Positions 2,380 to 18,807 of a DNA stretch of 64,000 nt are shown piece by piece. The stretch's first letter is position 1. Every line of letters begins with the position of its first letter. A program made the position numbers and the translations under genes. Where the stretch lies: contig JANWLD010000001.1 in the NCBI GenBank assembly GCA_025451045.1, positions 273,965-337,964 on the forward strand, in the 5' to 3' direction. This DNA comes from Candidatus Saccharimonadales bacterium. Lineage in GTDB: Bacteria > Patescibacteriota > Saccharimonadia > Saccharimonadales > 2-12-FULL-41-12. The notes below the pieces were generated by a model. It saw only the letters and a program-made list of their open reading frames with translations. It made no database searches and was not told the DNA's origin.

Positions 2380-3564
2380 ATGTTTAATAAAAAAACAGTC
2401 GAAGATATTGATGTAGAAAACAAACGTATTGTCCTGCGGCTTGATTGGAATGTACCGGGCGACGCGCACGGCGAAGTTACCGATGACTTCCGTATTAAGG
2501 CAAGTTTGCCGACGATAGACTATCTGCTAAAGCACGGTTGCAGTCTGATTATCCTCAGTCACCGCGGCCGTCCCGATGGCCCGAGCCGGGAGTTCAGCAT
2601 GGAACCGGTGGCAAGAAAGGCCAGCCAGATAATCGGCAGAGAAGTGAAATTCGCCGATGATTTGACAGGCGAATCGGCCCAGACCGCAGTACAGCAGCTA
2701 AAACCTCAAGACATATTAGTGCTTCAAAATACCCGGTTTTATCCTGAAGAAAAATCAGGCGATGAAGGCTTTGCCCGCCGGCTGGCGAGTTACGGCGACA
2801 TTTTTGTGATGGATGCTTTCGCAGTTGCCCATCGTACGGATAGCTCAGTTATCGGTATCAACAAATTTTTGCCTTCAGTCGCGGGATTCTTGATAGAAAA
2901 AGAGATAACCGAACTCTCAAAAGCTATCGAAAATCCCAAAAAACCGGTGCTGGCTATCACCGGCGGAGCTAAGCTGGAAACTAAACTGCCACTTCTTAAA
3001 AACTTTATGAATTTTGCCGACCATATTGTCGTTGCCGGAGTAATGGCTAACATCCTGCTCCATGCGCTGGGCTATCGAACTGGAAAAAGTATCTTTGATA
3101 AAGCCGAACTTGCTACGGCTAAAGACGTACTGGCCCAAGCCGAAGCAAATGGCGTAAAGTTTATCTTGCCGACGGCTGACGTCGCGGTAGCCAAAAGCCG
3201 TGATGAAACAGAGCGACAAGAGATAAAGACCGAAGAAGTCGCGGAGGATGATTTTATCTTGGATTTTGGAGAAAAAAGTACCGGCAAGGTCAAAAAATTA
3301 ATCCTTGATGCCAATACTATTATTTGGAACGGCCCCCTCGGGCTTTATGAAAATCCGGTTTTTGCTAAGGCCTCAAAGGAGATAGCCCAAGCTATTGCCG
3401 CCAGCTCTGCCGTAAGCGTAGTTGGCGGCGGTGATACCGCTGACGTGGTCAATTCGCTCGGTCTGAGCGATAAGTTTACCCACGTTTCAACCGGCGGCGG
3501 AGCGTCTTTAGATTTCATGAGCGGCAAAAAACTACCCGCTATCGAAGCTTTGTCAGACAAATAG
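2380..3564 (+). CDS. pgk: phosphoglycerate kinase
   Basis: LRLDWNVP, the SHRGRP motif, and a glycine-rich C-terminal ATP lobe (GGGDT...STGGGASL) are present. The gene sits tightly after pyk. Confidence 0.92.
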   Translation: MFNKKTVEDIDVENKRIVLRLDWNVPGDAHGEVTDDFRIKASLPTIDYLLKHGCSLIILSHRGRPDGPSREFSMEPVARKASQIIGREVKFADDLTGESAQTAVQQLKPQDILVLQNTRFYPEEKSGDEGFARRLASYGDIFVMDAFAVAHRTDSSVIGINKFLPSVAGFLIEKEITELSKAIENPKKPVLAITGGAKLETKLPLLKNFMNFADHIVVAGVMANILLHALGYRTGKSIFDKAELATAKDVLAQAEANGVKFILPTADVAVAKSRDETERQEIKTEEVAEDDFILDFGEKSTGKVKKLILDANTIIWNGPLGLYENPVFAKASKEIAQAIAASSAVSVVGGGDTADVVNSLGLSDKFTHVSTGGGASLDFMSGKKLPAIEALSDK

Positions 3565-4395: not shown

Positions 4396-5029
4396 CGATA
4401 CAACCGACGGACTAGAGCCGGAAGCAGAAGAAGTAAAAACTGCTCCGAAAATAAAAGACGTAGCCAATCCGGGGGAGACTCCGCCGTCGGCTACGGCTCG
4501 CCCAATTATTACCGGCCATGGTTCGATACTTAAACAAGACCCGATGATGGCTGACAAATCCGAACCTGATGAAAAAATAACTACCAAAAAAGCCGAACTT
4601 ACGATAAAGCCTGAGACCGAATCCGAACCTGAATCTACCGAAACATCGGAGGAATCACCCAAAGGCGAAAATAAAGACGAGCCGCCTGAGGCAAATGAAG
4701 CCGAAAAAGGCGAAACTAAAAATGATGAAGACAGCACCGGTTCCGACAGCGCGGCTATAGATTCATTGGCGACTTCGGCGGGAAACAAAAAGCAGGATGC
4801 GAAGCAAGCGGAAGAAGAACGAAAAAAAACTGAAAAAATAAATGAACTCATTGCCAGCAAAAGATATTCCATCCCGATAACCGAAGGCGGCCATAAAGCA
4901 TCTAGCCAGCGTTTCATGAGCTGGTTACTATTGATATTGTTGGCATCAGCAGTCGGCGTTTATCTGGCAATAGACGCTGGTTATCTGGACATTGGCATCG
5001 CTTTGCCTTTCGATCTGATAAAAAACTAA
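4376..5029 (+). CDS. hypothetical acidic low-complexity protein with a C-terminal transmembrane anchor
   Basis: The ORF overlaps the tpiA stop by 20 nt. It is Glu/Lys/Thr-rich and ends with the hydrophobic helix LLLILLASAVGVYLAI. It has no recognisable domain. Confidence 0.45.
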   Translation: MPKKKNNDTTDGLEPEAEEVKTAPKIKDVANPGETPPSATARPIITGHGSILKQDPMMADKSEPDEKITTKKAELTIKPETESEPESTETSEESPKGENKDEPPEANEAEKGETKNDEDSTGSDSAAIDSLATSAGNKKQDAKQAEEERKKTEKINELIASKRYSIPITEGGHKASSQRFMSWLLLILLASAVGVYLAIDAGYLDIGIALPFDLIKN

Positions 5030-5056
5030 TAAGTTTCGGTTTGCTAAGATGTATAG

Positions 5057-7180
5057 GTGAAAGACTTATTTGAGGACCTGAATCCGGAGCAAAAACGGGC
5101 GGTTGAAACTACCGAAGGGCCGCTTTTAATCCAAGCTGGAGCTGGCAGCGGCAAGACCAAGACGCTGACGCACCGGATTGCTTATATTGTCAGTTCGGGT
5201 CTAGCCGCGCCCTATCAAATTCTGGCGGTAACATTTACCAACAAAGCGGCGAAAGAAATGCGCATCAGATTGGCCAAACTAGTCGGTCATGATGCAGACG
5301 ACCGGACGTTCCTGCCATTCATGGGCACCTTTCACGGCATCTGCGTAAAGATTCTCAGGATCGACGGAGATTTTGTTAAAGTTCCCAAAAACTTCGTGAT
5401 TTTTGATGAAGCCGACAGACTGGCGACAGTAAAACAAGTTAGCAAAGACCTCAAGATTGATGAAAAAAGCTTCCCGCCTCGCTTGATTGCCAGCCTTATC
5501 AGCAGCGCCAAAAACGAACTTATCCGTCCGGCCGAATATAGCAATCTAGCTTCCAGCCCGGTTCAAAAAACTGCCTCCCAAATTTTTCCGCTTTATGAAA
5601 AAGCCCTGAAAACCGCCGGAGCACTGGACTTTGACGATTTGATAGGCAAAGCCGTTGAACTGATGGCCAATCATGAAGATGTCCGACGCCGTTGGCAGGA
5701 AAGATTTAAATACGTGCTTATCGACGAATACCAAGACACTAATTCCGCCCAGTACAAGCTAGTCAAATTTCTAGTTAACAAAAAACAGAACATTGCAGTG
5801 GTTGGCGATGACTGGCAAAGTATTTATTCGTGGCGGGGAGCTGATTTTAAAAACATACTTAATTTTGAAAAAGATTATAAAAACGTCACGGTCATCAAAC
5901 TGGAACAAAATTATCGCAGTACCAAGCATATCCTGGACGCCGCGCACAAAATAATTGCCAAGAATACCCAGCGTTCTGATAAGAAATTATGGACGGCAAC
6001 CGATAGCGGCCTGCCGGTACAGGTAGTGCCGGTAGCCAATGAGCGGGCGGAGGCCGAAACTATCATTCGCCGGATTGAGACCGGTATAAATCTTGGCTCG
6101 CGCGGTTATGACGATTTCGCGGTGCTGTATCGGACCAACGCTCAAAGCCGGGCGATTGAGGACATGTTTATCCGCTACGGCGTGCCTTACAAAATTATCG
6201 GCGGGGTTAGGTTTTATGACCGCAAGGAAATCCGTGATGTAGTAGCTTACCTGCGTTTAATTTTTCAGCCCGAAGACAGAACCAGTTTCGAACGCATCGT
6301 CAACGTACCGGTCCGCGGCATAGGCGATAAGTCGCTTAGCAACCTTTTCGCGTGGCAAGCCAAAAATAATTTTAGTTTGGAACAAGCACTAACTAAAATC
6401 GAAGAGTGCGACGAACTAACGCCGAAAGCCAAGAAAGCCTTATTTGGCTTCAATGCGATACTCAAAGATTTGCGCGCCATCATTGACGAAACTAATCCGG
6501 CTGGACTTATCGATTCGCTGTTGCGTCGGATTGAATACCTTGAATATTTAAACGACGGCACCATACAAGCTGAAGCTCGGATAGAAAACGTCAACGAACT
6601 TTTGAGTGTCGCCCGGGTTTATCAGGATGTTGGTCTGCAGGATTTTCTGGAGGAAGTTTCGCTGGCATCCGATGCCGAAAGCGGAAACCAAAGTAGCTCT
6701 TCGGTGACATTGATGACCCTGCATTCCGCCAAAGGCTTAGAGTTTCCGGTAGTCTTTATGGTCGGTATGGAGGAAACTATTCTGCCGCATACCCGCTCCA
6801 GTTTTGACCAAAAAGACATGGAAGAAGAACGGCGGCTGTGCTATGTCGGCATGACCCGGGCCAAAGAAGAACTTTATATGATTTACGCCGGTTCGCGCGT
6901 ACTATACGGCGGCGTCCAACATAACGTCCCATCGCGGTTCTTAAGCGAAATCGACAGCCAGCTGGCCCACGCGGGTGCCGGCGACAGCTTAACCGCCCGG
7001 CCGCCTTTATCAGATGAACCGAGATATGTAGCGGAGCTTAACCCCGGCGACAAAGTTCGCCACCAAGTATTCGGCGTAGGGACGGTAGTTCAGATAGAAG
7101 AGGAAGAAGCCGTGATAGATTTCAAGACCAAAGGTTCTAAGAAGCTCAATCTGGCATTCGCCCCGATAGAGAAGATGTAA
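5057..7180 (+). CDS. pcrA: ATP-dependent DNA helicase PcrA/UvrD family
   Basis: The gene has a GTG start. Walker A reads AGAGSGKTKTL, and the DEYQDTN, VGDDWQSIY and QNYRST motifs follow. The C-terminal domain includes the Tudor-like tail. Confidence 0.88.
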   Translation: MKDLFEDLNPEQKRAVETTEGPLLIQAGAGSGKTKTLTHRIAYIVSSGLAAPYQILAVTFTNKAAKEMRIRLAKLVGHDADDRTFLPFMGTFHGICVKILRIDGDFVKVPKNFVIFDEADRLATVKQVSKDLKIDEKSFPPRLIASLISSAKNELIRPAEYSNLASSPVQKTASQIFPLYEKALKTAGALDFDDLIGKAVELMANHEDVRRRWQERFKYVLIDEYQDTNSAQYKLVKFLVNKKQNIAVVGDDWQSIYSWRGADFKNILNFEKDYKNVTVIKLEQNYRSTKHILDAAHKIIAKNTQRSDKKLWTATDSGLPVQVVPVANERAEAETIIRRIETGINLGSRGYDDFAVLYRTNAQSRAIEDMFIRYGVPYKIIGGVRFYDRKEIRDVVAYLRLIFQPEDRTSFERIVNVPVRGIGDKSLSNLFAWQAKNNFSLEQALTKIEECDELTPKAKKALFGFNAILKDLRAIIDETNPAGLIDSLLRRIEYLEYLNDGTIQAEARIENVNELLSVARVYQDVGLQDFLEEVSLASDAESGNQSSSSVTLMTLHSAKGLEFPVVFMVGMEETILPHTRSSFDQKDMEEERRLCYVGMTRAKEELYMIYAGSRVLYGGVQHNVPSRFLSEIDSQLAHAGAGDSLTARPPLSDEPRYVAELNPGDKVRHQVFGVGTVVQIEEEEAVIDFKTKGSKKLNLAFAPIEKM

Positions 7181-8483: not shown

Positions 8484-8577
8484 GCTTTTGGACCAGCCAG
8501 CCTGCTCCCGAGCATAGCTCGGAACACTGCTGGCTTCTTGGCGCTAGGACACAATTTTCTTCTGCGATGCTCTTTCA

Positions 8578-8597
8578 ACGTACCACGGTACGTTTTT
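8578..8597 (+). terminator. rho-independent terminator after the rpfB-like gene (ACGTACC-AC-GGTACGT followed by TTTTT)
   Basis: A perfect 7-bp stem is followed by a T-run. It is preceded by a larger nested stem-loop at 8498-8545. Confidence 0.6.
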
Positions 8598-8667
8598 AGT
8601 CCGCTTCTCGAAGAGAAATTGTACCTATCATCCAAGTCCATAAACCTAGTTTGGTAGAATGTAGGGT

Positions 8668-9093
8668 ATGAAGGCTAAATTTGATGGCTATAATTGGCTG
8701 GCTCGTTTAGAAAGGGGCGAAAAGCTCGTTGAAAGCTTGGATAGGCTTATCATTGAGCAGGACATAAAGACCGCTTGGCTTTTCGGTATCGGCGCGGCCA
8801 GCTCCGCGGAAGTAGGCTACTATGATTTGAAAAACAAAGATTACGTTTGGAAAAAGGTCGATAAAGATTTGGAAATACTAAGCCTGCAAGGCAACCTGAC
8901 GTTGGGCGAGGACAAGCCGTTGATTCACCTGCATGGTTTATTTTCCGATGAATCAGGAAAAACTTTTGGCGGCCATGTAAAAGATTTGACCGTATCCATC
9001 ACCTGCGAACTATTTTTGCATAATTGGTTTGCCGGACAAGGTATAACGCGCTTCATTGACCCGGATACTGGCTTGAAGCTGCTCGATTTATGA
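8668..9093 (+). CDS. PPC/DUF296 domain protein (predicted DNA-binding)
   Basis: ARLERGEKLVESL...AWLFGIGAASSAEVGYYD...LSLQGNLTL...PLIHLHGLFSDESGKTFGGHV is the typical PPC-domain sequence pattern. Confidence 0.7.
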   Translation: MKAKFDGYNWLARLERGEKLVESLDRLIIEQDIKTAWLFGIGAASSAEVGYYDLKNKDYVWKKVDKDLEILSLQGNLTLGEDKPLIHLHGLFSDESGKTFGGHVKDLTVSITCELFLHNWFAGQGITRFIDPDTGLKLLDL

Positions 9094-10330: not shown

Positions 10331-11137
10331 ATGAAAATTGAAAATATCAGTATCAACGGAATTGTTAAAGACGGGCCCGCAGCCGATAAATTATTGTTAG
10401 ACAGCCATGGCGCATTTGAAAGTTTCCGCCTGCACGGCGGGCGGGTATTTTTGCTTGATGAGCATTTTGATCGGCTGAAAAAAAGCCTGCAAGCGCTTGG
10501 TATAAACTGGGATGACGATAGGCAAAAATACTGCTCCTGGATTAAAGACCTATCTCGCAACCTGCCAAAAGACAAAGACGCATTTATACGTTTTACAGCT
10601 ACGCCGACGGATATAATAATACAAATAAGGTACATTCCGCCTTTTTCGCCTAAATCTTATCAAGCTGTAATTTTGGACAAAATCACACTGGAAAAACCAA
10701 ACTATTTTGAAAAATTTGGCTTCCGTATCAAATCGGTTGATTACATAAAGGCACGAACCAACCTAAGAAAGACGGCCGGGTTAAAACCCGGAGTCGAAGG
10801 AATATTACTGACCCCCGACGGTTTTGTAGCCGAAGCTTTAACTGCCAACATCTTTTGGGCCAAAGACGGGCAATTGTTCACATCCCCACTTGAGCTAGGC
10901 ATTTTGGCAGGCACAATGCGCGGCTATTTAATGACAAAAAATAAAGTAAAAGAAGCTTTAGCTAAAGCAACCGATTTAGACAATGCCGAAGAGATAATAT
11001 TAACCAGCGGCGCCAGCTACTTACGACCGCTGTCGGAAATAAACAATATAAAAAAACCCGGCGCGGCCGGCTCGGTTTTCAAAAGACTTTATAGTGAGCT
11101 GGTTGAGGATATAGAGAAAAAATCAAAACCCCTTTAG
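10331..11137 (+). CDS. aminotransferase class IV (branched-chain aminotransferase / aminodeoxychorismate-lyase family)
   Basis: The class-IV fold signature EALTANIFWAKDGQLFTSP...GILAGTMRG is present. Confidence 0.65.
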   Translation: MKIENISINGIVKDGPAADKLLLDSHGAFESFRLHGGRVFLLDEHFDRLKKSLQALGINWDDDRQKYCSWIKDLSRNLPKDKDAFIRFTATPTDIIIQIRYIPPFSPKSYQAVILDKITLEKPNYFEKFGFRIKSVDYIKARTNLRKTAGLKPGVEGILLTPDGFVAEALTANIFWAKDGQLFTSPLELGILAGTMRGYLMTKNKVKEALAKATDLDNAEEIILTSGASYLRPLSEINNIKKPGAAGSVFKRLYSELVEDIEKKSKPL

Positions 11138-12261
11138 GCCGTTGCTTTTTTGATTTTCTCCAACACGAGTTTTCCAAATTCGGTCGCGGTAACTTTTTTG
11201 GCAACCAAACCTTCTATTTCACCACTGGTCATAGCATATAAATCCGCTGGCAGATGAAGGTCATCCAGTACATCAGCGACTGCCTGCTCGATTACATCGG
11301 CAACCTCAGGCCGGTTAAGGCTATGTCTGAACATCAGGGCCGCGGAAAGTATCATTCCTATCGGATTGGCATTCTCCGCATCTTCTATATCGGGAGCAGA
11401 ACCATGGATAGGCTCGTACAGGCCGAAATCATTTTTTGCCAAACTGGCTGATGCGCCCAAGCCGAGTGAACCGATGACTTGGGCCCCCTCATCGGATAAT
11501 ATATCGCCGAACATATTAGTAGTTACTATTGTGCCGGTCTTTACTTTTCCTATCAAAGCGGCCGCTTCTGCATCAACATGTGAATATCCGATTGTTTCAT
11601 AAGCCATTCCTTCTTCTGCGGCTACTTCTTTGACCACAGCGCGCCACAGCCCGCCGGTCTCTTCCAAAACGTTGGTCTTATGAACCCAGCTAAGCTTATC
11701 CCCACGTTCCCGCGCCAGCTTTATGGCCATTTTGACGATTTTTTCTACCTGGCTTTCTTTGTAGAAAATTGTTTCATAAGCCCATCTTTCACCAGTTTCC
11801 TCATCAACCCCGTGATCAGAATCACCATAATAAGCGTCGCCGGTAAATTCACGGACAATCATAAGATCCGTACCCTGTGCTATACGATTTTCCAGCGGAG
11901 ACAAATGGACTCCGATTTCACCCAAGATCTTTAGCGGACGAAGGTTGGCATAGAGGCCAAGCTTTTCCCTAAGCGGCAGAATGGCTTTTTTCTCCAAACC
12001 TTGCCATTTCGGGTCGTCGCTATTCGGCGGACCACCAAACGGACCCTTCAATACAGCATCCATTTTAGTTGCCGCAGTTACAGATGAATCCGGCAAATGC
12101 TCACCGGTTTGATCAAATGCTTCGCCCGAAACCGGTATATGCACGAAGTTTGGATGCAAGCCTGCCATTTCAGCGCCAGCTTCCACAATGGGCAAAGTCA
12201 GCCCAGTAATTTTTGGTCCTATCCCGTCTCCGGGCATTACACCTATATATATTTCTGACAT
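11134..12261 (-). CDS. isocitrate/3-isopropylmalate dehydrogenase family enzyme (LeuB-like)
   Basis: The N-terminus reads IGVMPGDGIGPKI, and NMFGDILSDEGA...GSLGLGASAS and GSAPDI follow. These are typical beta-decarboxylating dehydrogenase motifs. Confidence 0.8.
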   Translation of the reverse strand: MSEIYIGVMPGDGIGPKITGLTLPIVEAGAEMAGLHPNFVHIPVSGEAFDQTGEHLPDSSVTAATKMDAVLKGPFGGPPNSDDPKWQGLEKKAILPLREKLGLYANLRPLKILGEIGVHLSPLENRIAQGTDLMIVREFTGDAYYGDSDHGVDEETGERWAYETIFYKESQVEKIVKMAIKLARERGDKLSWVHKTNVLEETGGLWRAVVKEVAAEEGMAYETIGYSHVDAEAAALIGKVKTGTIVTTNMFGDILSDEGAQVIGSLGLGASASLAKNDFGLYEPIHGSAPDIEDAENANPIGMILSAALMFRHSLNRPEVADVIEQAVADVLDDLHLPADLYAMTSGEIEGLVAKKVTATEFGKLVLEKIKKATA

Positions 12262-12320
12262 GCACTAATTTTCCGGTAAGATCTAGCCGAATGCAAGCAT
12301 GAGCAGATTAGAATATAAGG

Positions 12321-14093
12321 CTAGAAACCGCCGTAACCGCCGCCGTAACCAGCGAAACTGACATCCGGTTTATGATAGTCGGTGACCTTTAAATCAGTAG
12401 CTGATCCGGGGCCTTTGGCCGGTACGATATATAGCTCGCTATCGTTCTTTGAATAAAGAAGATAGTCATCAGAGTACCAGCCATAAGGTACGTATTCAGT
12501 TAAACTGGCTATTTCTTTTCCGTGCCCGCCGTTTGCATCGCCTATAAATAGAGTGTTTTTGCCATCCCTTGGCTCATACCATGAAGTTTGCTTGCCGGAA
12601 GGGGAGAGCAGGTAGGTAGGGTAGTAGCTATAGAATTTATCGCCATCTACGCCTGAAGCGGCCTTGACTTGTCCATCCTCATATTCCAAATAGGTAGTTC
12701 CGGAGGAATTGTCTATCGCAAAATAGATCTCATTCGGAGTATAAGCGACTGCATCTACGTAGACATCATAGCCGGCATTAAAAGTCTTTAAAGTTCTTTT
12801 ATCGCTACCATCCGGATTGACGCTAATTATGGAATTTTTCTTTCCGGCAGTCAGCCCGCCTGATTCATCAGTACTATTCCAAACGGAAGCGAAAACTACC
12901 TTGTCGGTCGTAAGATAGATATTTTGGGCAGCAAGCTCAGCATAGTTTGAGGAATTTGTACCAACTCCCTTTGAATTGTTAAGCGAGGTTAGTTTTTTTG
13001 ATGAAGCATTAAAACTCTTTATCGATGACCTTCCATTTTGCCATTCATGGATATTTTTACGATCGACAGTATAAATGAAGTTATCATTCAGCCAGCCGCT
13101 GAACGAGAAGGTCGCGTTGCCTTCATCTACTGTGCTGAGCTTATCCGTCGCGGTGTCTATTAGATAAACTTTTTCTGAGCCTTCTCGTTTTGAAAGAAGG
13201 GCAAGGTATTTCCAGTCGCGAGATGCTAGCAGGACTGTATTAGTTTCATCTTCTTTGCCGGTGCCGGCTAATACCGTTTGGCGGGCACTGCCATCCAGAT
13301 TAGTCTTGACCACATCTATCTTGCCGGAAAGTTTAGAAAGAAAATACAGCTTACCAACACGGGTTATTTGGAAAGTATTGGCGTTGTTTTCATCTTCGGT
13401 CACTTTGATTTTAATTTTTTGATCATTGTAGCCGTTCATTTTTACCGCACCCTCAATCGTCGGCTTGTCCTGCGGCAAGACTATGATAGCCTTACCATCC
13501 TTATCGGTCCTGGACGTCGTACCGGCCGCGGATACCTCGGCGTTTTCTACCGGTTGGTTTGTAATCTTATCAATGACCTTTACTGGTACCTGTCGTCCGG
13601 TAGCTTCAAAATTAACCCCCAGCGGAGTTGCTTGTGTCGATAATGAAACAAATACCGAGACAGTCTGTTCTTTGTAATATTTTTTCGTAAGGGTTAGCGC
13701 GGCTTTGCCCACAGCGGCATGTATGGTCGCTTTACCATCTTTGTCGGTACGTGTATTTGTGCCATCCAGTGAAACATCTGCGTCACTAACCGGCTTTTGA
13801 GTTTCAGAATCAACTACAACTACTGAGAAATCCTTTTTGATAAACAGGCCAAGGACTTTATATCTGGTAGACGGAATAACTAGGAGTATCGCTAACAACA
13901 GCACGAGAGTTAGCGGTATGCTTAATTTCTTATGGTTCTTATACCAATTTTTAAACCGGCTTAGTTTACTGTTACCCGACGGTTTTGGAGTGGTCTCAAA
14001 AGATTCGGAAGATGTTACCTCCGGCTTTGGGGTTTGCTCATCATCTAGGCTTACCGTTTCTATTTCGTCACTATTTTTAATTTCATCGGCCAT
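12321..14093 (-). CDS. hypothetical membrane-anchored surface protein (two CarbopepD_reg-like repeats plus a TolB-like beta-propeller region, with a Gly/Tyr tail)
   Basis: There is an N-terminal TM helix. Two tandem ~35-aa repeats each end TDKDGKA(T/I)I. WD/TolB-like repeats follow. The C-terminus reads GYGGGYGGF. Confidence 0.5.
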   Translation of the reverse strand: MADEIKNSDEIETVSLDDEQTPKPEVTSSESFETTPKPSGNSKLSRFKNWYKNHKKLSIPLTLVLLLAILLVIPSTRYKVLGLFIKKDFSVVVVDSETQKPVSDADVSLDGTNTRTDKDGKATIHAAVGKAALTLTKKYYKEQTVSVFVSLSTQATPLGVNFEATGRQVPVKVIDKITNQPVENAEVSAAGTTSRTDKDGKAIIVLPQDKPTIEGAVKMNGYNDQKIKIKVTEDENNANTFQITRVGKLYFLSKLSGKIDVVKTNLDGSARQTVLAGTGKEDETNTVLLASRDWKYLALLSKREGSEKVYLIDTATDKLSTVDEGNATFSFSGWLNDNFIYTVDRKNIHEWQNGRSSIKSFNASSKKLTSLNNSKGVGTNSSNYAELAAQNIYLTTDKVVFASVWNSTDESGGLTAGKKNSIISVNPDGSDKRTLKTFNAGYDVYVDAVAYTPNEIYFAIDNSSGTTYLEYEDGQVKAASGVDGDKFYSYYPTYLLSPSGKQTSWYEPRDGKNTLFIGDANGGHGKEIASLTEYVPYGWYSDDYLLYSKNDSELYIVPAKGPGSATDLKVTDYHKPDVSFAGYGGGYGGF

Positions 14094-14178
14094 GATTAAT
14101 CCTCATTATATATTTGATGGAATTATACAAGTATTTTGCGAAAAACGTATATGCTAAATCAAAAAAATAGCCGCAAAA

Positions 14179-14913
14179 CTAATCTTGGCGGCGGATAGTC
14201 AATGAAGCCAGCACCAAAGCGGCCACGGTATAACAGCCAACAATTAAAAGGTCATGGGTCAGCTCAGAAGTCCATTCAAAATTCGACGTAATCTGTTTCA
14301 TAGCATCTACGCTGTAAGTAAGCGGCATAACATTGGCAAACCATTGAAGCGGCTGTGCCATTTGCTCGCGGGCAATGAACAAGCCGCAGGTAAGCAATTG
14401 AGGCAAAATGAATGCCGGCATAAATTGAACGGCCTGGAATTCGCTTCTGGCAAACGCGCTGGTAAAAAGCCCCAGCGAAGTACCAAGCAGTCCAGCCGCG
14501 ACCGCACAGACAATTGTTGGGAAGGTACCGCCCAGTACCGGCACATCCAAAAGCCCCAACATCACGCCTGTCGCAATACACGCTTGGGCAAGTGCTACCA
14601 GACCAAAGGCTAACGCGTAACCAAATATAAAATCCATTTTGCCAATTGGCATCGTCATCAGCCTATCCAATGTTCCGCTGGTCCGTTCGCGCAGGGTAGC
14701 TATGGAAGTAACCAAAAACATCATTACCATTGGGAAAATGCCCAGTAGCATCGGAGCCAACTGGTTAAAAGTATTTGGCTCATTTTGAAAAACATATTTG
14801 AAAATGGTCAAAAGCACTGGCGGCACAACAAACAAAAGCGCCAAAGTACGATGGTCATGGCTGAGCTGGCGCAATACGCGCTTGGCCGTGGCCAGCGTCT
14901 TCCGCGGGCTCAT
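14179..14913 (-). CDS. ABC-2 type transporter permease
   Basis: It has six predicted TM helices. It is translationally coupled to the upstream ATPase, with the stop and start overlapping. Confidence 0.75.
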   Translation of the reverse strand: MSPRKTLATAKRVLRQLSHDHRTLALLFVVPPVLLTIFKYVFQNEPNTFNQLAPMLLGIFPMVMMFLVTSIATLRERTSGTLDRLMTMPIGKMDFIFGYALAFGLVALAQACIATGVMLGLLDVPVLGGTFPTIVCAVAAGLLGTSLGLFTSAFARSEFQAVQFMPAFILPQLLTCGLFIAREQMAQPLQWFANVMPLTYSVDAMKQITSNFEWTSELTHDLLIVGCYTVAALVLASLTIRRQD

Positions 14914-15659
14914 GTTTGGCCTCCGACCAGTTTCAAAAAGCTTTCTTCAATCGTTTTTGTCCCAGTATGTTTCTTCAGGTCCGCCGGCGTACTGTGGGCA
15001 ATGGCCTGTCCGTTGCGCAGTAGCACTAAATCATCGCATCTTTCAGCTTCATCCATAGAATGGCTGGTGATTACCAATGTCGTGCCTTGCTTGGCCAATT
15101 GAGCGAAGAGATTCCAAAGTTTGTTCCGTAGCACCGGATCCAACCCGACGGTTGGTTCGTCCAGCACCATCAGCTTGGGTGAGCCGATAAGCGCGATTGC
15201 CAGCGAAACCCGTTGTTTTTGGCCGCCGGAAAGACTACTGACTAAACTGTCGGTCTTATCAGTTAAATCCACAGCTTTTAAGACTTCAATCAGTGTTTTC
15301 TTTAAATCTTTGCGCGCTTGCCCTGACATAATCGCAAAGAAATTCAAGTTTTCTCTTATTGTAAGATCCGGATAAACGGAGAGCTCTTGGGTCATATACC
15401 TGGCTTGCTTGCGTAATTCTGCCGATCCGGGTTTCATGCCGAAGACCAAAATTTCTCCTGAAGTTATACGCGTTCTTCCGACAATACTGCGGACCAACGT
15501 GGTTTTTCCGGCGCCGGACGGGCCGATTATACCCACGGTTTTTTTAGATGGCAGCTCTATACTGACGTTCTTTATTGCTTCGATTGCTCCGGGAAGGGTA
15601 ACTGATAAATTCTTTATTTGTACCGCGTTTTCCATACCTAAAGCATAACAAACCGACAA
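14910..15659 (-). CDS. ABC transporter ATP-binding protein
   Basis: Walker A GPSGAGKTT, signature LSGGQKQR, and Walker B LMVLDEPT are all present. Confidence 0.9.
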   Translation of the reverse strand: MSVCYALGMENAVQIKNLSVTLPGAIEAIKNVSIELPSKKTVGIIGPSGAGKTTLVRSIVGRTRITSGEILVFGMKPGSAELRKQARYMTQELSVYPDLTIRENLNFFAIMSGQARKDLKKTLIEVLKAVDLTDKTDSLVSSLSGGQKQRVSLAIALIGSPKLMVLDEPTVGLDPVLRNKLWNLFAQLAKQGTTLVITSHSMDEAERCDDLVLLRNGQAIAHSTPADLKKHTGTKTIEESFLKLVGGQT

Positions 15660-15667
15660 AGAATTTA

Positions 15668-16195
15668 TTATTTAGCTGGTGAAACGAAACTCATCAATTG
15701 GCTTCCATCCGGCAGAAACTCCGTATGAATATCAAAGTGCTGTTCCATATCTTGGGCTAAAGTTACAGACTTTTCATGCACGTCCTGAGCTTCGTCGTCT
15801 CTTCCGACTTCAGTATAAGCGCCCTCCATGGCGTGGTATAAACGAGCAAGACTAAAAAAACCGCTATAGGTTCCTCGCATCTTATAACTTTCAACTAATG
15901 GCTGTGCCTTTTCAAGATTAGTCACCGCCTGAACCGGCCTTTTTGCCCTTAAATAAGAATGGGCGGCATCCATAAGCAGGTTACTCAGTTGTATCGGTTC
16001 CGTTTCAGTGTGCCGCGCGGCTTTTTTTTCATATCCTTTGGCTTCTATTAAGGATTGGACTCTATTTTTTCTTTCGCGCGCGCGTTTTATAAACAGCAAA
16101 GCTTTAAAAAACAAAATAGTACGGCGCGGCAGCTCAAATGGTTCCAGTTCTAGCTCTAGGGGAGATTTATCCGCCTTTATCTCAGGAGAACTCAT
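15668..16195 (-). CDS. hypothetical protein
   Basis: This is a 175 aa ORF with no recognisable motif. Confidence 0.4.
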   Translation of the reverse strand: MSSPEIKADKSPLELELEPFELPRRTILFFKALLFIKRARERKNRVQSLIEAKGYEKKAARHTETEPIQLSNLLMDAAHSYLRAKRPVQAVTNLEKAQPLVESYKMRGTYSGFFSLARLYHAMEGAYTEVGRDDEAQDVHEKSVTLAQDMEQHFDIHTEFLPDGSQLMSFVSPAK

Positions 16196-16258
16196 TATAT
16201 AAATATTTATACGACTATTACTTTAATAGTTCAAGAGGACTTTCATTTTGTACCCGGA

Positions 16259-16687
16259 CTAACGGCCATGTATCCGTGGATTTTGTCTGCGTTTTCGCCG
16301 CCCCGCCACCGTCATTTTAGGGGGTCCGAATTCTTCGGCCATCATTTTATTCAATCTTGAAACCTTGCCAGATCTAATTTTCTGCCGCTGGGTTTTGTTT
16401 GGCGAACCCGCCTGTTTTTGTTTGCCTGAGCTATAAGCTTCGTAATCATAATATTTACCCCGTCTGTCGGATATTATCCGGCCTTTAGCTTCAATCGCTT
16501 TTAGTCCGTTTGATATGTCTTTAAAAACACCGCTTGAAACTTTTCTTTCCAAGGTCAAGGCATAGATGATTTCTTTCATTGTAGCCCTAGAGCCGCCGCT
16601 ATCTATCAGGCCCAGTACTACATCTTCAAAATAAAGCCCTTCATTTGGTGTCTTTGGCTTTTGCTCGGCGCCTAATTTTGCTTCCAC
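16259..16687 (-). CDS. hypothetical basic protein with a possible winged-helix segment
   Basis: This is a 142 aa ORF. The central segment ATMKEIIYAL...GRIISDRRGKYY is winged-helix-like, and the C-terminal tail is Arg/Lys-rich. Confidence 0.45.
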   Translation of the reverse strand: MEAKLGAEQKPKTPNEGLYFEDVVLGLIDSGGSRATMKEIIYALTLERKVSSGVFKDISNGLKAIEAKGRIISDRRGKYYDYEAYSSGKQKQAGSPNKTQRQKIRSGKVSRLNKMMAEEFGPPKMTVAGRRKRRQNPRIHGR

Positions 16688-16769
16688 AACAGTGTCCTCC
16701 GTTCTAAACGTTTATTTATAAACCAACATTTATAAGGTTGCAAGCCCCGTAGTAGACTTTTGAGTTTAT

Positions 16770-16841
16770 CTGCCTCGGAGATTAGCTTCCCGGCCACTTG
16801 GCCGGGAAGGTCTCAAAAGCTCACTACCGGGCAAGCATGAG
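16770..16841. repeat. 72-bp inverted repeat, left copy. It is the reverse complement of 18194..18265, with 71/72 identities.
   Basis: Directly compared in the sequence. It contains a perfect 10-bp GC-rich hairpin CTTCCCGGCC-ACTT-GGCCGGGAAG. Confidence 0.9.
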
Positions 16842-16849
16842 CGGGAAGC

Positions 16850-16881
16850 AAAAAAGCTTTAGGATTAACTCAAGCTTTTTT
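16850..16881. terminator. bidirectional hairpin terminator (AAAAAAGCTT...AAGCTTTTTT) downstream of the prepilin gene
   Basis: A 10-bp perfect stem with a 12-nt loop is flanked by A and T runs. Confidence 0.5.
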
Positions 16882-16913
16882 GGTAAAGCTGGCGGGTAAA
16901 TACTCCCAAGCCC
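16879..16913 (-). repeat. degenerate copy of the tmRNA 3' end (T-arm plus acceptor-CCA-like segment)
   Basis: In the minus sense it reads GGGCTTGGGAGTATTTACCCGCCAGCTTTACCAAAA. This aligns at about 29/35 positions with the ssrA 3' end GGACGTGGGAGAATTACCCACCAGCTCCACCAAAA at 17735..17701. Confidence 0.6.
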
Positions 16914-16945
16914 TATGGATTTATGCGGCTTATTAAGCTTACGAT

Positions 16946-17626
16946 TTAGCGATACGCAATTGTGGCTATGAGCAACTCGACTGTTTTAGTAGCAGATTGA
17001 CCATTATCAGAATCTAATACACCATAACCGTTACTTGCGGCGAAATATATGTCCGAAGCATTCTGCCAATATGCCTCAAAGTTGGCATTATCGTTCCAAT
17101 TATAGGTACGTACGGCTAAACCGTCTTTTGTAGTAAGGCTGCCATCTTCTACAGTTCCGCTTTCCAAAGGACTTGTATTTGGCTGACCTTTTTTGGTAGC
17201 TGACTCAACGATACTTCCCAAATTACCCATCGATTTTCCATAATTGATTCCGATTATTTGTAAATCCGCCGGCATGTTAGTGACAGGACCGTCCAGGTAA
17301 TCACCAGGAGTTTTAGTAGTCGAAATGGTGATATGGCCACTGCTATTGATCAACTTATCTTCGGTGACGTACCAACCGGACGGATATTTAAAACTTATGT
17401 AGCCCGTATCGGGATTTTTTGAAGAATAAGTTTGCCAACCAGCATATTTATCCTCGGATGCTTCAGTTTTGGTTGAGGTTGAAGATTGTATGGATGAGTT
17501 CGAGATACTATTGTTTTTATTCTGTGTTTTATATACATAGAATATAACTCCGGCTATCATCAGAACGATTATTAAAATAAGTATAGCCTCAATAGCAGAA
17601 AAACCTTTAGAGTTTAGTTTTTTCAT
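16946..17626 (-). CDS. type IV prepilin (class III signal peptide) with a Ser/Thr-rich linker and a globular C-terminal domain
   Basis: The N-terminus reads MKKLNSKG^FSAIEAILILIIVLMIAGVIFYV. It carries the canonical G-F...E(+5) prepilin peptidase site. An AAGGA ribosome-binding site is present. Confidence 0.75.
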   Translation of the reverse strand: MKKLNSKGFSAIEAILILIIVLMIAGVIFYVYKTQNKNNSISNSSIQSSTSTKTEASEDKYAGWQTYSSKNPDTGYISFKYPSGWYVTEDKLINSSGHITISTTKTPGDYLDGPVTNMPADLQIIGINYGKSMGNLGSIVESATKKGQPNTSPLESGTVEDGSLTTKDGLAVRTYNWNDNANFEAYWQNASDIYFAASNGYGVLDSDNGQSATKTVELLIATIAYR

Positions 17627-17662
17627 AAATAATCCTTATGTTTAAATACTTAAGCTAATAAT

Positions 17663-17689
17663 AAAAAAACTCTTGTAATAATACAAGAG
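17663..17689 (-). terminator. rho-independent terminator of ssrA (CTCTTGTA-TTAT-TACAAGAG followed by TTTTTTT in the minus sense)
   Basis: An 8-bp perfect stem followed by a 7-T run lies 12 nt after the tmRNA CCA end. Confidence 0.7.
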
Positions 17690-17700
17690 TTAAAGAATTT

Positions 17701-18074
17701 TGGTGGAGCTGGTGGGTAATTCTCCCACGTCCATCAGTTTACGTCGTTGGTCGTCTACAAGCTTAGGCTATTTAGTTACGTCCTGAGATAAAAATAACCA
17801 AAAAATCAGGCCGGTTGACCCAAAGTCTTAGCGCATCTTACGGGTCGGTAAGTTGCGAGCGTTCAGAAAATATGACGCCAACTGAAAATATCTGAAGTCA
17901 ATTCAGTGGCGAACTTCGTTCTTAGGCGAAGTTGAATGCTAGCTTAGGCGCGAACGCATCAGCTAAGCGGTTTAGAAATGTTTTTGCATTTACTAAAAGT
18001 TTCCCTATGACGCTGAGAAGCGGCTTGCGGAATCCAACTTGTAAAGGTCCGATGTCGAGCTAAAATACAGCCCC
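17701..18074 (-). ncRNA. ssrA: tmRNA (transfer-messenger RNA)
   Basis: In the minus sense the 5' end reads GGGGCTGTATTTTAGCTCGACATCGG, which carries the canonical GGGGCUG acceptor strand and UCGAC element. The 3' end reads GGACGTGGGAGAATTACCCACCAGCTCCACCA, with a T-arm-like hairpin and CAGCUCC-A-CCA pairing the 5' end. Its 374-nt length fits. An internal tag-like reading frame ends ...AFAPKLAFNFA-TAA. Confidence 0.75.
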
Positions 18075-18193
18075 TCATGTAACTTCAAATTTTGAAGTAA
18101 CTTGAGCGGATGAAAATCTGGGTTGTTAAAGAGGGGGTGAGGCTCCCGATTACTCTGTGATTATAGCATAAAAACAATCGGATTACAATACCT

Positions 18194-18265
18194 CTCATGC
18201 TTGCCCGGTAGTGAGCTTTTGAGACCTTCTCGGCCAAGTGGCCGGGAAGCTAATCTCCGAGGCAG
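18194..18265. repeat. 72-bp inverted repeat, right copy. It is the reverse complement of 16770..16841.
   Basis: There is one mismatch in 72 nt. In the sense of the downstream + strand gene, that mismatch converts a C-G pair of the 10-bp hairpin into a U-G wobble. Confidence 0.9.
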
Positions 18266-18276
18266 TAATCGCCATA

Positions 18277-18807
18277 ATGCAAGAAACCAATATAGGAGTA
18301 AAGGCCTGGGTAGAAGGTCATTGGCCGGAACTCGCAGATGCTGAACCCGGCGCTTCTTTTGATCAAACCGTCCAGAATTTTGTATTTGAAAATCCTGAAC
18401 TTGTGACGAGTGGAGATGACCGGGATATTCAGAAAACTCTTGGCGGTGTTCTTAGAGAATGGGTTATCGACGACTGGATAAATAACACCGCGCTTTCGGC
18501 CTTAGACGGTGTCATAGCTCGGAACTATCCTGAAAATCAAAAGAAAAGGATAAGAGAAATTGTACAAGACCGGGATTTAAGAGTTACATCTTTGGGCCTG
18601 GCTCCTAAAACTATTGTTAAATCAGATAATATCCTGACTCCGGAATCCGATGCGAGAAGTTATGGTATGGCCACTGGTAAATTAAAGTTCGTATTAATCG
18701 AAGATGGTGGCTTGATATTGCAACCTAAAAAAGAAGGCTTTTGGTTCGTAAACGTGTTGGATAAAGAAACGGATGAACCCTTAGTAGAGTTGGAAGTCGT
18801 AGAATAA
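18277..18807 (+). CDS. hypothetical protein. The ORF track gives a GTG start at 18238 inside the repeat; I prefer the ATG at 18277.
   Basis: The ORF is about 177 aa with no recognisable motif. GAGG lies 14 nt upstream of the ATG. Confidence 0.45.
   Translation: MQETNIGVKAWVEGHWPELADAEPGASFDQTVQNFVFENPELVTSGDDRDIQKTLGGVLREWVIDDWINNTALSALDGVIARNYPENQKKRIREIVQDRDLRVTSLGLAPKTIVKSDNILTPESDARSYGMATGKLKFVLIEDGGLILQPKKEGFWFVNVLDKETDEPLVELEVVE

Follow-up and report, generated by a model that had tools for sequence, protein, structure and literature searches.

An inverted repeat around ssrA in a Candidatus Saccharimonadales bacterium: two copies of a small stem-and-hairpin element with relatives that encode a GIY-YIG protein

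The inverted repeat that surrounds the transfer-messenger RNA (tmRNA) gene ssrA in a 64,000-nucleotide (nt) stretch of the genome of a Candidatus Saccharimonadales bacterium (assembly GCA_025451045.1, contig JANWLD010000001.1, positions 273,965 to 337,964; hereafter, the window, with positions counted from its first letter) is one complete and one truncated copy, in opposite orientations, of a stem-and-hairpin element of about 100 bases. Units of the same family occur in other Saccharibacteria, and in five independent loci, the termini of the element bracket an open reading frame (ORF) for a small protein with a GIY-YIG nuclease domain. We consider it probable (roughly 0.7) that the small units are ORF-less derivatives, similar to miniature inverted-repeat transposable elements (MITEs), of a small selfish GIY-YIG cassette, and that the window holds one complete and one truncated representative.

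Anatomy of the inverted repeat

A repeat search of the window delineates two arms (16770-16844 and 18191-18265) of 75 nt each that are 97% complementary and are separated by 1346 nt; the 72-nt core of the arms (16770-16841 and 18194-18265) contains a single mismatch. Each 35-36-nt half of an arm is present exactly twice in the window when up to three mismatches are allowed, against an expectation of zero from shuffled sequences. An initial annotation of this DNA, made from the letters alone, had described a near-perfect inverted repeat of 72 base pairs (bp), and most of its geometry is borne out: the repeat is real, each arm contains a 10-bp GC hairpin that is perfect at 16786-16809 and carries one C to T change at 18226-18249, resulting in a U.G pair in the plus-strand sense, and the spacing to the flanking ORFs is correct (83 nt from 16770 to the start at 16687 on one side; from 18265 to the ATG at 18277 on the other side). 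The arms also bracket, as had been noted, the tmRNA gene (RF00023 match at 17701-18074) and a prepilin-like ORF (16946-17626). The one detail that has to be corrected is the start codon of the minus-strand ORF at 16259-16687, which is GTG rather than the ATG originally reported.

The left arm makes up the 5' three-quarters of a 97-nt unit that is complete and lies on the minus strand (16740-16836). The segment 16740-16764, just beyond the arm, is a third, imperfect copy of the inner part of the arm, and on the minus strand, it pairs with that inner part, closing the 97-nt unit with a long stem (P1). In this copy, P1 comprises 21 bp, including a G.U/A.C/G.U triplet that is invariant in the family; the 5' strand of the stem (GCCCGGUAGUGAGCUUUUGAG; 16812-16832, minus strand) is nearly invariant across the family, and the 3' strand (CUCAAAAGUCUACUACGGGGC; 16744-16764, minus strand) is absent from the right copy. 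Enclosed by P1 are the hairpin P2, which is the previously noted GC hairpin read on the minus strand and is homologous to P2 of the loci L010 and L027, and P3 (16768-16782, minus strand), a weak second inner hairpin predicted by folding. The unit carries a direct repeat, GCTTGC, at both ends (5' repeat at 16831-16836 and 3' repeat at 16740-16745, both on the minus strand, matching in 6 of 6 positions), and the G of the 5' GCTTGC is the last base of an ATG at 16836-16838. The complete element scores 90.2 bits (E = 1e-22) against the covariance model of the family described below, and its RNA fold has an energy of -55.1 kcal/mol (z = -7.5). The units of the loci L008-L028 share this architecture.

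The right copy (18199-18265, plus strand; 19.9 bits) is truncated at the 3' end: it includes GCTTGC, the 5' strand of P1, P2 with the U.G wobble and the 5' half of P3. The 3' strand of P1 is missing, and the conserved closing stem cannot form in this copy. We also considered the possibility that the right copy is complete, with a decayed 3' part beyond a gene-conversion boundary; however, the sequence past 18265 scores 5 against the continuation of the left copy, compared with a mean of 6.4 for shuffled sequences, which shows the truncation to be genuine. The right copy is headed by an ATG (18197-18199) that is preceded, at a distance of 7 nt, by the -10-like hexamer TACAAT (18184-18189, plus strand), which is the same layout as that upstream of the ORF-bearing cassettes discussed below. 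A scan of the whole window with the covariance model, with filters off, detected no third copy of the element. The GC hairpin of the initial annotation is P2 of this element, not a gene-specific operator.

A family of small units in Saccharibacteria

Two pattern searches identified relatives of the element: a degenerate 19-base pattern derived from P1 led to 2 other Saccharibacteria genomes, and a two-part P1 pattern led to 19 metagenome contigs. Taken together, the genome and metagenome matches comprise 17 distinct small units of 85-97 nt that contain no conserved ORF and are located in contexts unrelated to one another. A covariance model built from 3 of the 17 units recovers all 17 and, in addition, diverged or shortened neighbor copies, namely, a tandem copy (L013b), an inverted copy at a distance of 3.8 kilobases (kb; L017b) and a miniature (L018mini). 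The two diverged copies in L017 are located at 3015-3116 (minus strand) and 6860-6951 (plus strand), and those in L013, upstream of atpB, at 4-93 and 223-315; the second copies in these two loci show compensatory changes in P1 (GCAGU/ACUGC and CUUUCGCG/CACGAAAG).

All 17 units share the motif 5'-CCNRGUAGUGAGCUUUUGAG...CUCRAAAGUCUACUAYNGG-3', including the invariant G.U/A.C/G.U triplet. The stem P1 (about 20-25 bp), which corresponds to the terminal inverted repeats of the element, has 84.6% of its cells paired across 25 copies. In the same 25 copies, 11 pairs of P1 vary on both sides, a covariation signal that none of 500 shuffles equaled and that is abolished when the register is slid. Among the variable pairs, G.U combinations outnumber A.C combinations 34 to 11 on the strand that is sense for the ORF-bearing form. 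The interiors of the units, with a median pairwise identity of about 0.5, form one or two stable hairpins (z < -2 in 16 of the 17 units; mean z of -4.6).

The search of Rfam 15 with the window and five other loci yielded no match to the element at E <= 10, and known RNA families that came into consideration (SRP, 6S, Y RNA, ribozymes) were rejected as its identity for lack of such a match. A phage origin was rejected as well: apart from four chance matches, the scans of viral contigs came up empty, and no copies of the element were found in these contigs. The family is specific to Saccharibacteria and possibly extends to other Patescibacteria.

The units carry flanking direct repeats of 4-8 nt (GCTTGC in the window; GCAAGC, GTATGC, GTAAAA and others elsewhere). 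The number of flank-to-flank matches is 98 of 150, compared to 64.4 +/- 4.6 in shuffles among copies (maximum of 82 in 2000). An extension of P1 into the flanks was rejected as an explanation: positions 6-7 pair in only 5-6 of the 17 copies, and the flanks are identical; the centers of the repeats read AA/AA, TT/TT or GG/GG, which excludes base pairing. The direct repeats would probably arise at insertion, by target-site duplication. The contexts of the units, at least 17 and unrelated, include both orientations relative to the neighboring genes: units are found in the intergenic region between dnaA-like and dnaN-like ORFs, upstream of atpB and the atp operon, after a 964-amino-acid ORF that resembles aminoacyl-tRNA synthetases (all these named from ORF translations only), and beside tRNA genes.

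Cassettes encoding a GIY-YIG protein

In the locus L019, the termini of the element together with a direct repeat bracket an ORF of 104 amino acids that contains a GIY-YIG domain (PF01541, E = 2.4e-16). This ORF-bearing form is present in five independent loci (L019, L032, L042, L043 and L044); in L042, the cassette is located upstream of tig and in L044, upstream of a HAD hydrolase gene. The encoded protein has hundreds of homologs of about 104 amino acids, nearly all from Saccharibacteria, with an invariant N-terminus, MPSSELS, and an invariant C-terminus, QKVYY. These two peptides are the translation of the two strands of P1, and the termini are invariant because they are imposed by the constraint on the nucleic acid. 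The more distant homologs from Patescibacteria begin at the GIY motif. The closest solved structures are those of UPF0213 proteins and SLX1, and there is a weak NCBIfam match to a group I intron endonuclease.

The placement of the cassettes is uniform. All five have a strong -10 hexamer (TACAAT, TAGAAT, TATACT or TATATT) 6-9 nt before the ATG of the nuclease gene and no Shine-Dalgarno sequence. At the other end, the ATG of the host gene lies 2 nt past the stop codon of the cassette in four of the five loci (...CUACUAGGUAUG...); L044 differs in having a 4-nt overlap between the host start and the stop codon of the cassette. The 3' copy of the direct repeat contains the host ATG in all five loci. 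The hallmarks of the family are an invariant stem around either a 104-amino-acid UPF0213-type nuclease or two hairpins, short flanking duplications and, for the ORF-bearing form, location at the start codon of promoter-proximal genes. Among the loci compared, there are no orthologous empty sites for the five ORF-bearing cassettes.

Two further GIY-YIG loci are worth mentioning. In L016, TATTGGCCGGGT is repeated three times in tandem (230-285) directly 3' of a GIY-YIG gene. In L007, a relative of the window in which the ssrA region can be compared, a GIY-YIG gene of another subfamily (8488-8772, minus strand; 39% identity to the L019 protein) that lacks the conserved stem is located directly downstream of ssrA, that is, in the position that the miniature element occupies in the window.

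Similarity of the two copies in the window

The two copies in the window differ at 1 position in 72 nt, a count that includes 11 nt of common 5' flank (CTCATGCTTGC). The relative L001 carries this 11-nt flank left of ssrA, and L007 shows a 14/18 match to the flank right of ssrA, at the position of the right copy in the window. As the initial annotation remarked, near-identity of this kind implies recent duplication or homogenization, and this remark stands: the similarity stems either from an inverted duplication that took place recently or from gene conversion acting on two older copies. One possible scenario is an old inverted duplication that took in the flank, with the window copies homogenized later by gene conversion; another possible one is that the element inserted twice, into similar target sites. 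We do not claim an ancestral origin of the inverted pair, given that the tests for remnants of the element detected nothing beyond GCTTGC in L001 (p = 0.82) and only a borderline match in L007 (p = 0.056). The U.G pair of the right arm is also found in P2 of L010 and L027, and hence the perfect hairpin of the left copy is probably the derived state.

Mobility and alternative explanations

We infer that the element is mobile from the direct repeats, the unrelated contexts, the occurrence of forms with and without the ORF, and the way in which the window and L001 align, with homology that runs through the 5' flank and one GCTTGC and ends exactly at the 5' boundary of the element. Under this scenario, the element would insert with a short target duplication, and the ORF-less units would most likely be mobilized in trans by the GIY-YIG protein. 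The initial annotation had offered, as one of three interpretations, that the arms are terminal inverted repeats of a mobile segment. This proposal survives in spirit but not in its anatomy: the arms do not terminate a 1.5-kb element carrying ssrA and the pilin gene; instead, each arm belongs to a small element with its own stem, truncated on the right, and its own direct repeats. Furthermore, no recombinase, integrase or transposase was identified among the ORFs from 7 to 25 kb of the window, that is, within about 10 kb of the repeat.

The strand bias of the G.U pairs suggests that P1 also matters as RNA, on the strand of the ORF. One such role could be repression of nuclease translation by pairing between the 5' and 3' ends of the message (the 20-bp stem begins 2 nt past the AUG); another could be cleavage of the stem that would free the downstream, leaderless host mRNA. 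A considerably bolder proposal, which we put forward only tentatively, is that the family represents an undescribed class of minimal mobile elements: a 320-bp cassette that encodes solely the 104-amino-acid GIY-YIG nuclease would insert exactly at the start codons of leaderless genes, duplicate (T)ATG(C) and borrow the promoter and the ATG of the host gene, with the terminal 20-bp stem silencing the nuclease and/or being cleaved to restore the leaderless host mRNA; the 100-nt units, including the pair in the window, would derive from it as non-autonomous forms. Small palindromic repeats are of a known kind, as are free-standing GIY-YIG genes, and the element family itself does not seem to have been described: it was not found in Rfam or in full-text literature searches.

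Several observations weigh against the derivation of the units from a mobile cassette. The site in L001 was initially regarded as a clean empty site, an assessment that had to be downgraded: the downstream gene in L001 is PadR-like and unrelated to the 142-amino-acid ORF that follows the left copy in the window, and there is no remnant past GCTTGC. The copy number is low, with 2 copies in the 64-kb window, 1-3 per contig elsewhere and only one exact match each on contigs of 90-181 kb; classical MITEs, by comparison, occur in large numbers. A tblastn search detected no GIY-YIG ORF of the family within the window, where both copies lack an ORF. GIY-YIG nucleases are not known to behave like transposases in generating duplications of the target. 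The 11-nt flank common to the two window copies fits co-duplication as well as two insertions into similar target sites. Finally, the strand-biased G.U pairs and the retention of the inner hairpins are equally compatible with a functional RNA.

The last point leads to the most viable alternative, namely, that the unit is a stand-alone gene for a functional structured small RNA that, for example, binds a protein via the G.U/A.C/G.U stem; in this case, the gene would be represented by the left copy and a pseudogene fragment by the right copy, with the GIY-YIG ORFs having simply reused the stem. The strong covariation in P1 with its bias to one strand, the inner hairpins that survive sequence turnover, and the low copy number, with one exact match per contig even at 90-181 kb, are all compatible with this possibility, and in L009, L016 and L026, a -10-like box is located just upstream of the unit. 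Nevertheless, we consider it unlikely. No consistent promoter or terminator accompanies the units across the contexts inspected: in L011, L012 and L017, a dnaA-like ORF (an assignment from the sequence only) ends with its stop codon immediately next to the unit, and while about 12 copies are co-oriented with a neighbor, 4 of the approximately 17 are antisense to both. Flanking direct repeats would not be expected of such a gene, diverged paralogs are found adjacent to one another, and the same stem also brackets a protein-coding ORF and dictates its terminal codons.

The initial annotation also proposed a shared promoter or 5'-leader element, such as a protein-binding hairpin, that would co-regulate the 142-amino-acid and 176-amino-acid ORFs flanking the arms; a riboswitch-like element would be a variant of this proposal. 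Both copies lie upstream of an outward-facing ORF and in its sense, the hairpin is kept in both, and the right copy, although it is the only one so placed, sits between a -10-like box and the start of the ORF. However, the contexts of the family, which range from the dnaA-like/dnaN-like region, the atp operon, the synthetase-like ORF and tRNA genes to antisense positions between genes, in either orientation, are unrelated; what is conserved in the element is its closing stem, a structure that the right copy is unable to form; the left copy is located upstream of the likely promoter and Shine-Dalgarno sequence of the 142-amino-acid ORF, which has its own GGAGG and an AT-rich promoter-like region; and the two ORFs are unrelated, with neither linked to the element in other genomes. 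Co-regulation therefore appears highly improbable.

We assign a similarly low likelihood to the arms being recombination sites of an invertible 1.35-kb segment that carries ssrA and the pilin gene and acts as a switch. Inverted arms of 75 bp at 97% identity suffice for RecA-dependent inversion, and their near-identity suggests ongoing exchange between the arms, but there is no invertase or recombinase gene within about 10 kb, the promoter and terminator signals of ssrA and the pilin gene are inside the segment, so that a flip would alter little, and the orientation of ssrA is the same in the relatives L001, L003 and L007. Homologous inversion across the 75 bp may well occur as a by-product, with no sign that inversion is a function. 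The least credible interpretation, also from the initial annotation, is that the arms, being complementary and flanking ssrA, pair in a long minus-strand precursor to form a 72-bp duplex that RNase III cuts to mature the tmRNA and the pilin mRNA: transcription of ssrA is predicted to start from a promoter situated between the tmRNA gene and the right arm, with no minus-strand promoter predicted upstream of that arm, two predicted terminators intervene between the arms, and no comparable repeat surrounds ssrA in L001, L003 or L007. The derivation of the units from a mobile GIY-YIG cassette remains the interpretation that we favor.

The ssrA locus and its neighbors

In L001, L003 and L007, a set of variable genes is followed by ssrA on the minus strand and then by the genes for DUF475, MetRS and TatD on the plus strand; the region downstream of ssrA differs in gene content in every relative. 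The closest relatives of the DUF475 protein, at 85% identity, are assigned to Saccharimonadales. In the window, the tmRNA gene (17701-18074, minus strand; RF00023, 57.3 bits) has a predicted promoter at 18160-18188 on the same strand (TTGTAA, 17-nt spacer and TG-extended TATAAT; 10 of 12 matches, the best in the region). The -35 box of this promoter is located at 18183-18188 and the -10 box, which is conserved in L001, L003 and L007, at 18160-18165; the start of the right arm is 3 nt upstream of the -35 box. This promoter and the plus-strand TACAAT are arranged back to back (18160-18199) and look like divergent overlapping promoters. In L003, the tmRNA match (4684-5253) spans 570 nt, compared with about 375-415 nt in the window, L001 and L007, which suggests an insertion of about 190 nt inside the gene.

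The tmRNA gene is directly followed by a predicted intrinsic terminator (17668-17691, minus strand) and then by the prepilin-like ORF (16946-17626, minus strand; 226 amino acids, N-terminus KGFSAIEAILILIIV), the sole gene of an insert in the 3' end of ssrA. Beyond this ORF, there is a displaced, diverged duplicate of the 3' part of the tmRNA (16884-16965, minus strand; compare with 17701-17780) and, between this duplicate and the left copy of the element, a hairpin (16849-16882) that, by homology to L001, is the ancestral ssrA terminator. About 85 nt of the tmRNA 3' end are duplicated in this arrangement, with only the prepilin-like gene and a terminator in between (insert at 16966-17700). Because 16884-16965 duplicates the 3' part of the tmRNA and 16831-16907 is homologous to the tmRNA 3' end and terminator of L001, the prepilin-like gene is, judging from these alignments, an integrase-less insert of about 735 bp in the ssrA 3' end that is absent from L001 and L007.

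Downstream of the left copy, the 142-amino-acid ORF (16259-16687, minus strand; GTG start) has no Pfam or NCBIfam match and is not homologous to the corresponding neighbor in L001. The 176-amino-acid ORF downstream of the right copy (18277-18807, plus strand) is nearly an orphan: a word-based search among 5.8 billion proteins retrieved no relatives other than the protein itself, and the ORF occupying the equivalent position in L007 shows 27% identity to it (E = 2e-6). The gene seems to evolve rapidly and to be specific to the lineage. A replication origin at the sign change of the GC skew near 17 kb was considered and rejected, given that the skew merely follows gene orientation; over 7 kb (11134-18074), a run of minus-strand genes shows negative GC skew within a window that otherwise consists of plus-strand genes with positive skew.

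Significance and comparison with known systems

By itself, the repeat is ordinary, consisting of two copies of a small repeated element. The family, in turn, ties a conserved, strand-specific, RNA-like stem to a tiny GIY-YIG gene of the UPF0213 type that is widespread in Saccharibacteria. Provided that the cassette does move and that its targets are the start codons of leaderless genes, it would exemplify a new and very compact strategy of selfish-gene insertion that leaves the host gene active, and it would provide the first biological context for the UPF0213 family. For genome annotation, it would be useful to mask or annotate the units in genomes of Patescibacteria; otherwise, they could be mistaken for gene-specific regulators, small RNA genes or the ends of larger elements.

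In the comparisons that follow, the known systems are characterized from general knowledge. REPIN/RAYT systems resemble the present family in that the repeated unit is a hairpin-forming doublet of about 100 nt, with GTAG...CTAC near the ends, long persistence in lineages and conserved mismatches in the stem. However, the units described here have variable flanking direct repeats, whereas the IS200/IS605-type mechanism makes none; their copy number is far lower, and no Y1 (RAYT) transposase was seen in the loci examined.

The HEARO elements (IscB-omegaRNA) similarly consist of a nuclease ORF within a conserved structured nucleic-acid element and also have ORF-less copies and signs of mobility. 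The differences are that the nuclease here belongs to the GIY-YIG rather than the HNH/RuvC type and that the structure is a simple long stem instead of a large guide scaffold; nothing indicates that the cassette uses RNA guidance, and there is no Rfam match.

In the hok mRNA of type I toxin-antitoxin systems, the pairing of the 5' and 3' ends (fbi/tac) keeps the mRNA of a toxic gene translationally inert. The cassette resembles this arrangement in that codons 2-8, at the 5' end of the ORF, pair with the last codons and the stop codon at its 3' end. The likeness is an analogy of mechanism only: no antisense RNA partner is known here, and the cassette encodes a nuclease instead of a membrane toxin.

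Free-standing GIY-YIG homing endonuclease genes, such as T4 seg and the relatives of I-TevI, are likewise small selfish ORFs wedged between host genes, with RNA structure plausibly limiting expression. In contrast, the protein considered here consists of the 104-amino-acid UPF0213-type catalytic domain alone and lacks a DNA-binding extension; the cassette ends in complementary termini between flanking direct repeats; and it is found at the start codons of five unrelated host genes, not at one cognate site, and in no viral contigs.

Resemblance in form also extends to MITEs and other small palindromic repeats, such as the Correia elements (CREE) of Neisseria, ERIC and RUP: these are ORF-less units of about 100 nt with terminal inverted repeats that can fold into an RNA stem and short flanking direct repeats, intergenic and often co-transcribed with neighboring genes, and they have longer, ORF-bearing counterparts with the same ends. 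The family described here differs in having 1-3 copies per contig and termini that are nearly invariant across deeply diverged genomes, while the interiors have turned over completely and still form hairpins; moreover, the ORF-bearing partner encodes a 104-amino-acid GIY-YIG protein rather than a DDE transposase.

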